Origin: Tropicimonas sp.
Lineage (GTDB): Bacteria; Pseudomonadota; Alphaproteobacteria; Rhodobacterales; Rhodobacteraceae
Reading direction: 5' to 3'
DNA length: 64,000 nucleotides
NCBI RefSeq assembly: GCF_047971885.1
Contig: NZ_JBKEAE010000183.1
Location: 1,504-65,503 of the forward strand
Shown one piece after another: positions 14,935 to 54,139 of the stretch. Position 1 is the first letter of the stretch. Every line of letters begins with the position of its first letter. The notes beneath the pieces were generated by a model, which saw only the letters and a program-made list of their open reading frames with translations, was not told the DNA's origin and did no database searches. A program made the position numbers and the translations under genes.

Positions 14935-15009
<75 letters not shown>

Positions 15010-22104: not shown

Positions 22105-22179
22105 TGGAGCGGGCGATGAGATTCGAACTCACGACCCTTACCTTGGCAAGGTAATGCTCTACCCCTGAGCTACGCCCGC
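22105..22179 (-). tRNA. tRNA-Gly (anticodon GCC)
   Basis: The reverse complement reads GCGGGCGTAGCTCAGGGGTAGAGCATTACCTTGCCAAGGTAAGGGTCGTGAGTTCGAATCTCATCGCCCGCTCCA, with anticodon loop TTGCCAA. Confidence 0.9.
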
Positions 22180-28717: not shown

Positions 28718-28781
28718 AATCCGTCTCGCGGTTCGCGGCGGCCATCGCCGCCGCGCCTCTGTCTGAACGGATCTGCCCGGA

Positions 28782-29003: not shown

Positions 29004-29108
29004 GTGGGTGTCCTTGAAGGGTGGCTGCCCCGGTGTCGTGGAGCGCGCGCTCCGCCCGGGCGGAAGCCGGCGCCGGCGCGTTGCGCGGCATTCCGGCGAT
29101 TGTCTGGC

Positions 29109-29178
29109 GGTGGCGGCATCAGGGAGGAGGAGGACGCCGCCACCTTGTCAGAAAACCCAGGGAGGAGGAGGGGTTTCC
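29109..29178 (-). ncRNA. CcsR/cuckoo-type sRNA unit (unit E): two hairpins with CCUCCUCCC loops
   Basis: Plus strand shows GGTGGCGGC-loop(..GGGAGGAGG..)-GCCGCCACC at 29109-29144 and AAACCC-loop(GGGAGGAGG)-GGGTTT at 29153-29176. Starts 17 nt downstream of the DUF1127 paralog-2 stop on the same strand. Confidence 0.65.
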
Positions 29179-29194
29179 CGATTTCCGTGTCGTT

Positions 29195-29416
29195 TCAGGC
29201 GCCGTAGGCGTTTTCGCGCGCCAGTTCGCGGATCATCGACCGGCTCAGCCCCAGATCGGCCAGCGCCCGATCCGAAAGGCCGGAAAGCTCCCGCACGGTC
29301 TGGCGATAGATCGCGTATTGCGCGTAACGTGCCCTGATCGTTTCCAGCGTGGAGGTAAACCAGTTGCCTTGACCGGCAAGCGCGACGTTGTTCGTTTCGA
29401 ATGTCTTTTCCATCAT
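29195..29416 (-). CDS. DUF1127 domain protein (paralog 2)
   Basis: 73 aa MMEKTFETNN...YRQTVRELSGLSDRALADLGLSRSMIRELARENAYGA. Internal start of ORF 29195..29548. Confidence 0.8.
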   Translation of the reverse strand: MMEKTFETNNVALAGQGNWFTSTLETIRARYAQYAIYRQTVRELSGLSDRALADLGLSRSMIRELARENAYGA

Positions 29417-29467
29417 TCTATCCTTTGTGGTTGCAGCGCCGACCGCGTCACCAATTACACTGCCTTC

Positions 29468-29492
29468 GTTAGCGCTACCTCTTGGCTTCAAG
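29468..29492 (-). promoter_or_regulatory. Putative sigma32/RpoH-like promoter of DUF1127 paralog 2
   Basis: Minus strand reads CTTGAA-N14-CTAACG, about 50 nt upstream of ATG 29416. The same motif with identical spacing recurs at 30512-30536. Confidence 0.4.
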
Positions 29493-29760
29493 ATAGACGG
29501 TGATGCCACCGGTTCAATCCGCATTTCGGCAATGCTGCCATGCAGCAATCGCAGGACTCATGAAACTTCAAGAAACAATCGTATCACTCGAAATTTTATG
29601 AATAATTTTTGAAATATAGCATTCTTGGCATCATTCGCAATCGCAGCATTTTTGCCGGGCGGGGCGAATTTCGGCCGCTCCGCAGCAGGTCGGCAAACGC
29701 ATCCCGGTGCTTGACGAGGCGGGCGTGTCGCCTGTCGGTCCGGGAAGGCAAAGGGAATAC

Positions 29761-29801
29761 AAAAAGGCGGCGACACCAGGGAGGAGGAGGGTGTCGCCGC
29801 C
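29761..29801 (-). terminator. Rho-independent terminator ending the DUF1127/sRNA array transcript
   Basis: Perfect 12-bp GC-rich stem followed by a T5 tract on the minus strand. Confidence 0.7.
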
Positions 29802-29839
29802 AAAAGACAGAAAACCCAGGGAGGAGGAAGGGTTTCCTG
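29761..29839 (-). ncRNA. ccsR: CcsR/cuckoo-type sRNA unit (unit D, last of array; its distal hairpin doubles as terminator)
   Basis: Hairpin CAGAAAACCC-loop(GGGAGGAGG)-GGGTTTCCTG at 29808-29839. Hairpin with 12-bp stem GGCGGCGACACC/GGTGTCGCCGCC at 29766-29801 and loop AGGGAGGAGGAG, followed on the minus strand by UUUUU (29765-29761). Confidence 0.7.
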
Positions 29840-29878
29840 ATCTCGTTCCGGCACCGCTGCGGGTGCCTTGAAACTTGT

Positions 29879-29948
29879 GCGGCAGCTCCAGGGAGGAGGA
29901 GGGAGCTGCCGCTGAAACAGAAAGCCCCGGGAGGAGGTGGGGTTCCTG
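29879..29948 (-). ncRNA. ccsR: CcsR/cuckoo-type sRNA unit (unit C)
   Basis: Hairpin with 11-bp stem GCGGCAGCTCC/GGAGCTGCCGC at 29879-29912 and loop AGGGAGGAGGAG. Second hairpin at 29918-29948 with loop GGGAGGAGGT. Confidence 0.7.
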
Positions 29949-30008
29949 TATTCCGTATCGAACGCACCGCATCGGTGCCGGGTGCCCCGCGTTCGGGGCC
30001 GAACAGGT

Positions 30009-30080
30009 GCGGCGCATCAGGGAGGAACGATGCCGCCGCCGAGACCGGAACCCAGGGAGGAGGACGGGTTTGCCTGTCTC
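30009..30080 (-). ncRNA. ccsR: CcsR/cuckoo-type sRNA unit (unit B; one loop degenerate)
   Basis: Hairpin 30009-30039 has loop AGGGAGGAAC, a degenerate motif. Hairpin about 30041-30080 has loop GGGAGGAGG at 30055-30063. Confidence 0.6.
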
Positions 30081-30126
30081 GAACTCTGCCTGAACAATCC
30101 GATGGATCGTTCGGCCATGATCTGGT

Positions 30127-30197
30127 GGCGATGGCATCAGGGAGGAGGAAGATGCCATCGCCGTATCAGAAAACCCAGGGAGGAGGACGGGTTTCTG
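30127..30197 (-). ncRNA. ccsR: CcsR/cuckoo-type sRNA unit (unit A, first after the DUF1127 gene)
   Basis: Hairpin with 12-bp stem GGCGATGGCATC/GATGCCATCGCC at 30127-30162 and loop AGGGAGGAGGAA. Hairpin CAGAAAACCC/GGGTTTCTG at 30167-30197 with loop AGGGAGGAGGAC. Begins 16 nt downstream of the DUF1127 stop at 30213. Confidence 0.7.
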
Positions 30198-30212
30198 AAA
30201 CTCTTGTCTCGT

Positions 30213-30422
30213 TCAGCCGCCGAAGGCGGTCCTGTGCGCTATCATATGGACACTGCGCCGGCTCAATCCAATATGTGCCAACTCGTCGTCCGTCAGCGCA
30301 GCGAAATCCCTGACCAGCCGACGATAGCTGTCCAACTGTTCAAATTTCGTCAACAGAGCAGCGAAAACCCTGCGGGTCGCAGCGCGACGCGGTTTGCCCG
30401 CCGTCCGTTGTGTCTCCGTCAT
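30213..30422 (-). CDS. DUF1127 domain protein (paralog 3; CcaF1-like position upstream of the sRNA array)
   Basis: 69 aa from MTETQRTAGKPRRAATRRVFAALLTKFEQLDSYRRLVRDFAALTDDELAHIGLSRRSV. ATG 30422 is preceded by AGGAAG; an alternative GTG start lies at 30446. Confidence 0.8.
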   Translation of the reverse strand: MTETQRTAGKPRRAATRRVFAALLTKFEQLDSYRRLVRDFAALTDDELAHIGLSRRSVHMIAHRTAFGG

Positions 30423-30511
30423 TGCTTCAGCTTCCTGCTTCTGCACCCGGGCTTTCGGCTCGATTTGTCCCAGCTTGAACTTGCCGGTTGTTAGCGCCGC
30501 GAACCCGGAAT

Positions 30512-30536
30512 GTTAGCGCCCTTCGTTGACTTCAAG
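30512..30536 (-). promoter_or_regulatory. Putative sigma32/RpoH-like promoter of the DUF1127-sRNA operon
   Basis: Minus strand reads CTTGAA-N14-CTAACAT. Same architecture as 29468-29492. About 85 nt upstream of ATG 30422. Confidence 0.4.
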
Positions 30537-30721
30537 ATATCGTCCGGCGAGGTGTTTGCAATTGCTCTAAACTTCAATGCCGCTATGCAGCATTTGCATA
30601 TGTCCTGCTGACCTGTTTTTGTGACATTGCGCCCCTTATCCGTGCAAGGTTGAAACTCGGCTTGCGTCGGGAGCATGGCGGTATAGGTCTGGACGGTGAA
30701 ATTCGAGGAATTGGGGGAAAT

Positions 30722-31813: not shown

Positions 31814-31832
31814 CAGAACTGCCGATGGCCGG

Positions 31833-31858
31833 CCCGTGCCGGTGGGCGCGGGCACGGG
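31833..31858 (+). terminator. Possible terminator hairpin after apbC
   Basis: 8-bp stem CCCGTGCC/GGCACGGG followed by TTCCGTGTG, a weak T-tract. Confidence 0.35.
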
Positions 31859-32192
31859 TTCCGTGTGCCGGGCGGGTCTCATGGGAAATCATGGGCCGGA
31901 CGATAAGAAGCGTGCCCACGCGCCGAATCTTCAGGCCGATAGCGCGGTGATTCGGCTGAATCGGGCCTGAAACCGGCGAATTTCGTCACCGGAAGTGGTC
32001 GGGAATCGCCCCTGTGGGCAGCATTCGCGGGATTTTATGGGTTTTTTCGTCCAAGATCCCGACGCCCATATATCGTGTTCCATTTCGGCTTGTGCGCAAC
32101 CTGTACTCAAAATGAACCCCAAGACCCCTGCTTTTCGCGTTGTCTCAGGTCTGGAATACCCGTCCTGTGGGCTGTCGGCCCATAAAGTGGTA

Positions 32193-32221
32193 TTGATTTC
32201 CATGAAATCCCACGGCATAAA
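32193..32221 (+). promoter_or_regulatory. Sigma70-like promoter of the dcw leader (TTGATT-N17-CATAAA)
   Basis: TTGATT at 32193-32198, 17-nt spacer, CATAAA at 32216-32221. Lies about 270 nt upstream of the mraZ start. Confidence 0.45.
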
Positions 32222-32227
32222 GGATCA

Positions 32228-32438
32228 CACGATGAGGACGGGCAGACAAAGGGGCGCAAGACCCCGGAACTTCCCAAAGTCAGGTTTCATACAGGCACCC
32301 GCTTTCATCGAACAAGAGATCCGACGCGTGAGCGAGCAGACATCCCCCCAGGTGGCACGCGCGATCGGACGCACCCAGCGATGGGACGAGGGCGGCGGAC
32401 CGGACTTTGGCAGCAGTTCGGTCCGCCGTTTTCATTTC
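32228..32438 (+). ncRNA. upsM: UpsM-like leader sRNA of the dcw cluster (promoter-proximal, terminated upstream of mraZ)
   Basis: About 205-210 nt lie between the predicted TSS and an intrinsic terminator. No credible ORF. Position and size match the UpsM RNA described for Rhodobacter sphaeroides. Confidence 0.5.
32394..32438 (+). terminator. Rho-independent terminator/attenuator in the mraZ leader
   Basis: 9-bp stem GGCGGACCG/CGGTCCGCC (32394-32402 / 32419-32427) followed by GTTTTCATTTC. Sits 53 nt upstream of the mraZ GTG. Confidence 0.65.
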
Positions 32439-52543: not shown

Positions 52544-54139
52544 ATGGCATTGAACCTCACCATGCCCGAGCAGCAGGAAGAACTCAGGCCGCGGATCACC
52601 GTGTTCGGTGTCGGCGGGGCCGGCGGCAACGCGGTCAACAACATGATCGAGAAGGCGCTTGAAGGTGTCGAGTTCGTGACGGCGAACACCGATGCGCAGG
52701 CCCTGCAACAAAGCCGCGCGCCGTCGCGGGTGCAGATGGGCGTCAAGGTGACCGAGGGTCTGGGTGCCGGCGCGCGCCCCGCGGTCGGCGCCGCCGCCGC
52801 CGAGGAAACCATCGAGGAGATCGTCGATCACCTCGCCGGGGCGCATATGTGCTTCATCACCGCCGGCATGGGTGGCAGCACCGGCACCGGCGCCGCGCCG
52901 ATCATCGCGCAGGCGGCGCGCGAACTGGGTGTGCTGACGGTGGGTGTCGTCACCAAGCCCTTCATGTTCGAGGGTGCCAAGCGCATGCGCCAGGCCGAGG
53001 AAGGCATCGAGGCGCTGCAAAAGGTTGTCGATACGCTGATCATCATCCCCAACCAGAACCTGTTCCGGCTGGCCAACGAGCGCACGACCTTCACCGAAGC
53101 CTTCTCGATGGCCGACGATGTGCTCTACCAGGGTGTCAAGGGCGTAACCGACCTGATGGTGCGGCCCGGACTGATCAACCTCGATTTCGCCGATGTCCGC
53201 TCGGTCATGGACGAGATGGGCAAGGCGATGATGGGCACCGGCGAGGCCGAGGGCGAGAGCCGCGCCATCCAGGCCGCCGAAGCCGCCATCGCCAACCCGC
53301 TGCTGGACGAGATCAGCCTCAAGGGTGCCAAGGGCGTGCTGATCAACATCACCGGCGGCTACGACCTGACGCTGTTCGAACTTGACGAGGCGGCGAACCG
53401 CATCCGCGACGAGGTCGACCCCGACGCCAACATCATCGTCGGTTCGACGCTGGACATGGACATGGAAGGGCGGATGCGCGTTTCCGTGGTCGCCACCGGC
53501 ATCGACGCATCGGAGGTTCGGCACGACATTCCGCGCCCCGACCGCAAGCTGCGCGAACCGGTGCGGGCGGAGAAGGCGGCAGCGCCGGAGGAGGAAGAAA
53601 CCGTTGCCGAGCCCGAACTCTTTGCCGGCGGTTTCCAGCCCCGGAAGGAAGAGCGCCGGATCGAGATGGTCGAGGATGACCTGCCACCCCCCGCTTACCG
53701 GCAGCCGGCCGCCGAAAATGCCCATGTTCTGGAAGCCGAGGTCGAGGAGCCGCGGGCTGCGGCGCCGCGCGACCTGCCGCCCGGTGCGCCTTCGCCCGAG
53801 GTGATGGCGCGGCTTCAGGCTGCGGTTCTCAAGGCCGCGCCAACCGGGATGACCGAACATGCGACGCATGCCACCGCGCCGCGTCCGCAGGCCGGAGAGT
53901 CATCGGCCGAGAAGCGGGGTTTCGGGATCGGAAACCTGATTCACCGCATGTCCGGCAGCGCGGAACCCGAACGCCCGGCGGCGGCGCCCGTCCGTCCGGC
54001 GGCGCCACCCCGGAACGAGCCGCCGCAACTGCGCACCCGCTCCGCCCGGTCGGCCGAAGCCTTTGAGGACGACCCGGCGATGGATGTCGAACAGCAGCGG
54101 ATCGAGATACCGGCGTTCCTGCGCCGGCAGGCGAACTGA
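52544..54139 (+). CDS. ftsZ: Cell division GTPase FtsZ
   Basis: 531 aa. [13 protein letters not shown] and GGTGTGAAP-type tubulin signature ([13 protein letters not shown]). Long alphaproteobacterial linker and conserved C-terminal peptide [12 protein letters not shown]. Confidence 0.97.

Follow-up and report, generated by a model that had tools for sequence, protein, structure and literature searches.

The stretch of contig NZ_JBKEAE010000183.1 from Tropicimonas sp. that we analysed (64,000 nucleotides (nt); hereafter the window, in whose 64 kb numbering all coordinates are given) carries on its minus strand a locus composed of three DUF1127-type genes, ORF-A, ORF-B and ORF-C (ORF, open reading frame), and five two-hairpin units, with no further such elements in the window. 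We describe this locus here by its sequence, fold, covariation, synteny and protein homology, and by its promoter and terminator motifs. The hairpins share the loop motif of the cuckoo RNA family, in which each RNA consists of 2 to 4 adjacent hairpins with CCUCCUCCC in every loop (Reinkensmeier & Giegerich 2015, PMC4615179). A first-pass annotation of 29761-30197 had already placed the array in the CcsR/cuckoo family of small RNAs (sRNAs), and the assignment of the locus to this family, beside a ccaF1-type gene, is supported by the ranking of Rfam models, synteny, covariation and the published CIN1 layout (PMC4615179, PMC8034643).

The features of the locus, from its upstream end on the minus strand, are listed below. 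Folding z-scores (z) are relative to shuffles, bit scores refer to the Rfam model CcsR1 or to our own covariance model R1, and L-numbers denote relatives' loci (L007, Aliiruegeria haliotis; L037, Tropicimonas isoalkanivorans; L059, Primorskyibacter flagellatus).

30575-30592, minus: palindrome TGCTGCATAGCGGCATTG upstream of promoter P_A, a candidate regulator site located by a regular-expression scan and alignment by eye
30534-30561, minus: predicted promoter P_A of RpoH (sigma-32) type, with TTG at 30561-30559, a 17-nt spacer and GATATCTT at 30541-30534; predicted start at about 30526
30519-30511 and 30497-30489, minus: two leader boxes GCGCTAACA in the predicted 5' untranslated region (UTR) of ORF-A, also found in L007 and L037
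30213-30422, minus: ORF-A, 69 amino acids from ATG, a divergent DUF1127/CcaF1 homologue and positional ccaF1 orthologue
30123-30201, minus: unit 1, both loops CCUCCUCCC; CcsR1 53.4 bits; minimum free energy -37.3 kcal/mol, z -8.9; R1 95.8 bits
30088-30115, minus: spacer hairpin between units 1 and 2, z -3.0
30004-30080, minus: unit 2, second loop degenerate (GUUCCUCCCU) and 3 nt shorter; CcsR1 33.6 bits; z -2.9; R1 47.4 bits
29964-29999, minus: two short spacer hairpins between units 2 and 3, in the minimum-energy fold; z -1.2
29874-29953, minus: unit 3; CcsR1 55.6 bits; z -6.8; R1 88.9 bits
29850-29867, minus: spacer hairpin between units 3 and 4, z -2.2
29761-29842, minus: unit 4; CcsR1 52.1 bits; z -9.4; its hairpin 2 (29801-29766) and T5 (29765-29761) form the predicted intrinsic terminator of transcription unit 1
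29530-29547, minus: repeat of the palindrome, TGCTGCATGGCAGCATTG, ahead of promoter P_B; equivalent second copies lie in L037 (4919) and L007 (4470)
29490-29517, minus: predicted promoter P_B of RpoH type, with TTG at 29517-29515, a 17-nt spacer and TCTATCTT at 29497-29490; predicted start at about 29482
29475-29467, minus: leader box GCGCTAACG in the predicted ORF-B leader
29195-29416, minus: ORF-B, 73 amino acids, ATG at 29416, Shine-Dalgarno sequence AAGGA; canonical CcaF1-like DUF1127 protein (Pfam E 7.9e-15; hhalign E 5e-26)
29105-29186, minus: unit 5, between ORF-B and ORF-C, no T-tract after it; CcsR1 52.2 bits; z -4.9; R1 100.2 bits
28782-29003, minus: ORF-C, 73 amino acids, the third DUF1127 protein (Pfam E 7.3e-11; hhalign E 1.5e-19)
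28734-28755, minus: GC-rich hairpin 3' of ORF-C, a weak terminator candidate with no clean U-tract; z -1.9

The first four units form a tandem array at 30201-29762 on the minus strand, each with two hairpins and 77-81 nt long, and their starts are separated by 121, 127 and 111 nt. Each of them folds as two adjacent hairpins with the motif in a loop of 10-12 nt and does so much better than its dinucleotide shuffles (listed z-scores), and the fold of unit 2 is the weakest. Unit 5 likewise folds into two hairpins, and the alignment to our covariance model agrees with this fold for all five units. CCUCCUCCC occupies seven of the eight loops of these units, and nine of ten when unit 5 is counted. 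The 64 kb contain nine copies of this 9-nt motif against 0.70 expected, a number that none of 100 shuffles reaches, and all nine lie on the minus strand within 29122-30186. The array runs on the same strand as ORF-A, no T-tract precedes 29765-29761, and a U-tract follows only one of the ten hairpins of the locus. Long ORFs that overlap the array on either strand are without family support, apart from one sub-threshold low-complexity match.

All coordinates of the first-pass annotation are reproduced to the base. Specifically, the seven motif sites that it gave, GGGAGGAGG on the plus strand, start at 29779, 29819, 29891, 29929, 30055, 30140 and 30178, and its degenerate loop, GGGAGGAAC on the plus strand, starts at 30020. 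Its three stem pairs are GGCGATGGCATC/GATGCCATCGCC at 30127/30151, GCGGCAGCTCC/GGAGCTGCCGC at 29879/29902 and GGCGGCGACACC/GGTGTCGCCGCC at 29766/29790, and the terminal U5 tract is the sole minus-strand T5 run, at 29765-29761, immediately 3' of the last hairpin. The spacer hairpins that it placed at 29850-29867, 29964-29978 and 29984-29999 occur in minimum-energy folds but are weak against shuffles (z -1.2 to -2.2), and a fourth one, at 30088-30115 (z -3.0) and also weakly supported, is missing from its list. Its count of four units holds for the stretch that it covered, but the locus has five in total: the exact motifs at 29122 and 29160 make up a fifth unit at 29186-29105, beyond that range. 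The fifth unit belongs to a second module downstream, 29416-28782, composed of a DUF1127 gene, unit 5 and another DUF1127 gene, which had been overlooked.

To place the units within a family, we scanned the window with Rfam models, whose gathering thresholds are 65.3 bits for CcsR1 (RF02791) and 58.8 bits for ar14 (RF02344). At these thresholds, the scan of the whole window gives no CcsR1 or ar14 match and only two tRNA genes, at 14935-15006 (plus) and 22108-22179 (minus). In a permissive E-value scan, the best family for every unit is CcsR1, followed by ar14, and three units reach local CcsR1 E-values between 1e-11 and 1e-12, unit 2 one of 4e-06; the ar14 scores are 18.3-44.8 bits, with the third hairpin of that model unmatched or poorly matched. 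The first-pass annotation had named covariance-model scores below threshold as an outcome that would refute its assignment, and formally the scores do fall below it, but calibration on relatives removes the force of this result. In Rhodobacter ruber and Tabrizicola, unit 1 of the array, beside the DUF1127 gene, passes CcsR1 with 100.1 and 97.2 bits, respectively, and the later units score 38-58 bits, so that RF02791 is a model narrowly fitted to CcsR1 itself. In Aliiruegeria (L007) and Tropicimonas (L037), the first units score 64.8 and 61.5 bits; at the gathering score, RF02791 recovers a single unit, the first, in each of L020 and L048 and none in L007, L037 and L041. Sub-threshold RF02791 scores are therefore normal for genuine paralogous units. 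Our own covariance model R1, seeded with units 1, 3, 4 and 5 of the window (unit 2 was left out, being misaligned in the first MAFFT alignment), finds exactly five units in the 64 kb, at 47-100 bits. A weak covariance-model match at 53571-53663 (18.9 bits, E 0.013) lacks the two-hairpin structure and was dropped.

For comparison, we retrieved 80 Rhodobacterales loci with the neighbouring Mrp/ApbC protein. The best Mrp/ApbC identities are 73-77%, and the searched collection therefore holds no close representative of the species. In about 70 of these loci, arrays with CCUCCUCCC are found immediately upstream of mrp and on the strand opposite to it, and phmmer finds a DUF1127-like ORF in 73 of the 80; all 67 aligned positional orthologues pass Pfam DUF1127. 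With our covariance model, 250 units are recovered from these loci, without exception on the strand divergent from mrp, and an nhmmer profile places 256 of 256 units on that strand. By position, and in being divergent from mrp, the window locus is an orthologue of the ccaF1-ccsR (CIN1) locus.

Copy number varies among these loci from 0 to 12 units with a median of 3; thirteen loci have four units, nine have five and eleven have six. Published HP2 clusters in Rhodobacteraceae, all of CIN1 and beside the DUF1127 orthologous group, reach up to 9 copies (PMC4615179), and four or five copies are ordinary for this reason. The copy number, which the first-pass annotation had singled out as worth documenting, is thus unremarkable. 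The largest array among the relatives, at 4189-5563 of L059, has 12 units with a 118-nt period, more than the published maximum of 9; most of its copies have identical scores, which points to recent tandem amplification.

The composite form of the locus occurs, among the 81 loci examined, only in the window, Aliiruegeria haliotis and Tropicimonas isoalkanivorans. The A. haliotis locus has four DUF1127 ORFs with units after each. The first, last and post-ORF-B units of the window correspond to those of the other two loci, and the unit 5 orthologue of T. isoalkanivorans lies at 4544-4466. The last units of all three share the terminator hairpin GGCGGCGACACC/GGTGTCGCCGCC and a T-tract, and the first units have hairpin 1 in common and differ in hairpin 2 by paired changes.

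Among the window units, helix 2 carries compensatory double changes at 7 of 12 pairs, and helix 1 is conserved in sequence. In the 150 best units from relatives, 93.1% of alignment cells are standard pairs, compared with 35-60% when the partners are slid; double changes occur in 22 of 22 pairs, and no shuffle attains the observed covariation. The earlier proposal that the stems vary while pairing is kept agrees with both data sets. What stays invariant across units is their loop motif, and not their stems.

The first-pass annotation called 30213-30422, ahead of the array, a DUF1127 gene, and homology is supported: hhalign against a profile of the 67 positional orthologues gives ORF-A a probability of 97.5% (E 7.6e-12). 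However, ORF-A scores below the cut-off of Pfam DUF1127 (PF06568; 23.3 bits) and is the least canonical of the three genes. Of the 13 columns that are invariant or nearly so, 8 hold another residue in ORF-A, and four of these exchanges are radical (T to L, R to D, D to H and A to T). ORF-A has no detectable relative in a 5.8-billion-protein collection; for ORF-B and ORF-C, the 80 genomes provide clear orthologues. In T. isoalkanivorans, no DUF1127 ORF lies between the promoter region and the five-unit array (L037 5707-6000), which appears to be transcribed as a non-coding precursor, and the ORF-B and ORF-C orthologues are kept downstream.

These observations raise the possibility that ORF-A of the window is likewise a decaying leader and that transcription unit 1 is effectively a non-coding precursor. 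The sub-cut-off Pfam score, the substituted columns, the lack of relatives in the protein collection, the ORF-less arrangement of T. isoalkanivorans and the canonical copies provided by ORF-B and ORF-C all favour such decay. Against it, the frame is intact over 69 codons, a Shine-Dalgarno sequence, AGGAAG, precedes the ATG by 9 nt, hhalign still recognises the DUF1127 core, and the positional orthologue is kept in A. haliotis. We consider decay a tentative alternative, rather less probable than a retained gene; it is compatible with the explanation developed below and touches only the phrase 'behind a DUF1127 gene'.

Both modules are preceded by similar predicted promoters. P_A and P_B read TTG-N17-(G/T)(A/C)TATCTT, in register with TTG-N17-CCCCATGT/CCTATCTT of the orthologous loci. 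In the aligned upstream regions the order is palindrome, 15-16 nt, TTG, 17 nt, CCCCATGT or CYTATCTT, and leader, and the leader after the promoter holds GGTAACAGCG or, in the window clade, CAACGA..GCGCTAAC. In their TTG and in the A and T of their -10 elements, the two window promoters agree with the conserved TTG, A-12 and T-9 reported to be important for RpoHI and RpoHII of Rhodobacter sphaeroides (PMC3441632), from which we infer that an RpoH-type sigma factor drives P_A and P_B. The palindrome, with consensus TGCTGCAT(G/A)GC(A/G)GCATTG, occurs in 42 of the 80 loci, about 133 nt upstream of the mrp match. The full palindrome-promoter arrangement is found in 30 of these 42 loci versus 0.27% of random anchors, and twice in the window, at P_A and P_B. 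The palindrome, which was not found in the searchable literature, looks like the binding site of a dimeric regulator.

The position of P_B implies that the true start of ORF-B is the ATG at 29416 and not the TTG at 29548 chosen by the ORF finder, which lies upstream of P_B. No promoter-like element was seen at 29104-29004, before ORF-C. Because no promoter or T-tract separates them, ORF-B, unit 5 and ORF-C probably belong to one transcript, and ORF-C is probably co-transcribed with ORF-B and unit 5.

Other candidate signals were set aside. CTTGAAG-N13-GCGCTAAC was rejected as a promoter: in aligned orthologues, the conserved TTG-N17-CCCCATGT/CTATCTT lies further upstream, and the GCTAAC box therefore falls in the leader. 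A consensus scan proposed terminators at 30382-30370, inside ORF-A, and at 29511-29498, in the P_B spacer, neither of which was used, and overlooked the real terminator (29801-29761) because its loop is 12 nt. The same scan returned a sigma-70-like site at 29640-29613 (minus), TTGCGA-16-TATATT with a TG extension, which was also left unused; its surroundings are AT-rich, and it has the array terminator on one side and the P_B palindrome on the other. As a separate observation, the box GCGCTAAC(A/G) repeats in the predicted leaders, twice before ORF-A and once before ORF-B (30511-30519, 30489-30497 and 29467-29475, minus). It also precedes the modules in L007 and L037, single copies lie before the ccaF1-type ORF in L036 and L065, and other genera have GGTAACAGCG in its place.

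A wider proposal joins these features. The ccaF1-ccsR module would have been duplicated in a small Roseobacter-group clade (the window organism, Aliiruegeria and Tropicimonas), and its DUF1127 paralogues would be diverging, with ORF-A losing or escaping the RNA-binding consensus, ORF-B flanked by cuckoo RNAs and unit 5 coupling the expression of ORF-C; additionally, an undescribed regulator would bind the palindrome TGCTGCATGGCAGCATTG upstream of the RpoH-type promoter across Rhodobacterales. As a whole, we hold this scenario to be unlikely, and put it forward as speculation.

The best explanation, to which we assign a probability of about 0.88, is that the locus is a CIN1-type ccaF1-ccsR locus of Rhodobacterales, composed of two minus-strand transcription units driven by stress promoters, whose sRNAs would be of the anti-Shine-Dalgarno type by analogy with R. 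sphaeroides. Transcription unit 1 would start from the RpoH-type promoter at about 30561-30534, encode ORF-A, carry the four cuckoo units in its 3' UTR and stop at the last hairpin and its U5 tract. Transcription unit 2 would start from the second RpoH-type promoter, at about 29517-29490, and encode ORF-B, then unit 5, then ORF-C. The further steps, namely expression of the locus, processing, binding of Hfq and CcaF1, and targets, are taken over from the literature. In R. sphaeroides, the locus is RpoHI/HII-dependent, RNase E cleaves the precursor beside U residues at the 5' end of each unit, and CcaF1, a DUF1127 protein, binds the CcsR RNAs and their precursor and modulates maturation (PMC8034643); Hfq binds the founding member RSs0680a, renamed CcsR1 (PMC4615179), and the C-rich cuckoo loops resemble the anti-Shine-Dalgarno sequence (PMC8034643, PMC4615179). 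By this analogy, RNase E may cut the primary transcripts of the window at U-rich sites just 5' of each unit, aided by a DUF1127 RNA-binding protein, and this processing would yield sRNAs of about 75-80 nt. Through C-rich CCUCCUCCC loops that imitate the anti-Shine-Dalgarno sequence, these sRNAs would base-pair to G-rich ribosome-binding regions in target mRNAs and lower the expression of these mRNAs under heat or oxidative stress.

Several points weigh against this explanation. Expression, processing and targets are carried over from the R. sphaeroides literature, and the sigma factor is assigned by motif resemblance. All five units remain under the Rfam gathering thresholds (CcsR1 33.6-55.6 bits), and the second loop of unit 2 is degenerate. 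The alignment used for covariation was fitted to the model, which favours structure. In addition, ORF-A fails the Pfam DUF1127 cut-off with 15.6-15.9 bits (E 0.011-0.013) and may not be a functional CcaF1 gene.

As an alternative to sRNAs acting in trans, the units might act mainly in cis or as a platform for proteins, being structures of the 3' or 5' UTR, by stabilising the DUF1127 mRNAs, setting processing sites, or titrating DUF1127 proteins or Hfq; as a particular case, unit 5 could control the expression of ORF-C. Such a role fits unit 5, which separates two cistrons, is not followed by a terminator and lies ahead of a gene, ORF-C, with no visible promoter of its own; it also fits the binding of CcaF1 to CcsR RNAs and precursor in R. 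sphaeroides (PMC8034643) and the pairing of a DUF1127 ORF with a unit in each L007 and L037 module. However, an invariant loop motif on variable stems fits base-pairing to a common class of targets, the CcsR RNAs of R. sphaeroides have trans effects on other mRNAs (as cited in PMC8034643), and the ribosome-binding site of ORF-C (AAGGA) has little complementarity to the loops, which together make a predominantly cis-acting role improbable. That the repeats are generic intergenic palindromes like repetitive extragenic palindromes, or stacked terminators without sRNA function, is suggested by tandem GC-rich intergenic hairpins of which the last is a terminator, but it is very improbable in view of the strict strand specificity, a 9-nt loop motif invariant over genera on covarying stems, the fixed syntenic position with no occurrence elsewhere in the 64 kb window, and a U-tract in only 1 of 10 hairpins.

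The CIN1-type explanation is in line with the known systems. Like the ccaF1 (RSP_6037)-CcsR1-4 locus of R. sphaeroides (Berghoff 2009 and Billenkamp 2015, as cited in PMC8034643; Grutzner 2021, PMC8034643), the window has a DUF1127-type ORF and behind it, on the same strand, four two-hairpin units whose loops carry CCUCCUCCC; one predicted Rho-independent terminator closes the array, and an RpoH-type promoter motif lies upstream. Sequence 5' of the units is U-rich in both, and the 5' flank of window unit 1, GUUUCA, compares with GUUUCC, the mapped RNase E cleavage site of CcsR1 (PMC8034643). Unlike the R. sphaeroides locus, the window has a divergent leading ORF under the Pfam cut-off and, after the terminator, a second promoter-driven module of a canonical DUF1127 gene, a unit and a further DUF1127 gene; against Rfam CcsR1, its unit 1 scores 53 bits compared with 97-100 bits in Rhodobacter ruber and Tabrizicola.

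The units also match the HP2 variant of cuckoo RNAs in CIN1 (PMC4615179), with two adjacent hairpins per RNA, CCUCCUCCC loops and variable stems, clustering beside the DUF1127 orthologous group in Rhodobacteraceae and a copy number within the published range; no difference in kind was found, and one of the ten loops of the window is degenerate. The flanks differ: the window locus has a response-regulator gene on its far side and mrp on its near side, and a benzoate transporter gene lies beside 27 Rhodobacteraceae cuckoo RNAs in that paper. In Sulfitobacter, cuckoo RNAs lie on both sides of the DUF1127 gene, and the Sinorhizobium locus, SMc02051/SMc02052, has an additional DUF1127 ORF (PMC8034643). 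The window resembles the former in that units flank ORF-B on both sides and the latter in its extension by ORF-C, and differs from both in having three DUF1127 genes and two full promoter copies. Rfam ar14/NfeR1 of Sinorhizobium meliloti shares the loop motif and the modular hairpins, but ar14 models three-hairpin RNAs, and in the window the third hairpin is missing or unmatched and 58.8 bits are not reached.

Outside the locus, a spacer of about 590 nt (31814-32406) separates mrp from mraZ/rsmH, with which the dcw cluster begins. The sRNA UpsM is located in the dcw leader of R. sphaeroides (PMC5089854); the mrp-mraZ spacer, a possible place for a UpsM-like RNA, has no Rfam match.

Taken together, the family, arrangement and copy number of the locus are already published, and the locus is typical of the known stress-induced sRNA loci of Rhodobacterales and ordinary apart from its layout. 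It adds a slightly unusual example to a well-described system of sRNAs and small proteins and leaves the understanding of that system unchanged; its modest interest lies in the composite layout with three paralogues, in the divergence of the leading ORF, in the conserved palindrome and in the narrowness of the Rfam model. Because RF02791 at its gathering threshold overlooks most units of real arrays, annotation undercounts the family. The leading DUF1127 gene, divergent in the window and lost in T. isoalkanivorans, could help to separate the roles of the protein and the RNAs, and the palindrome next to the stress promoter provides a concrete candidate site for a regulator.

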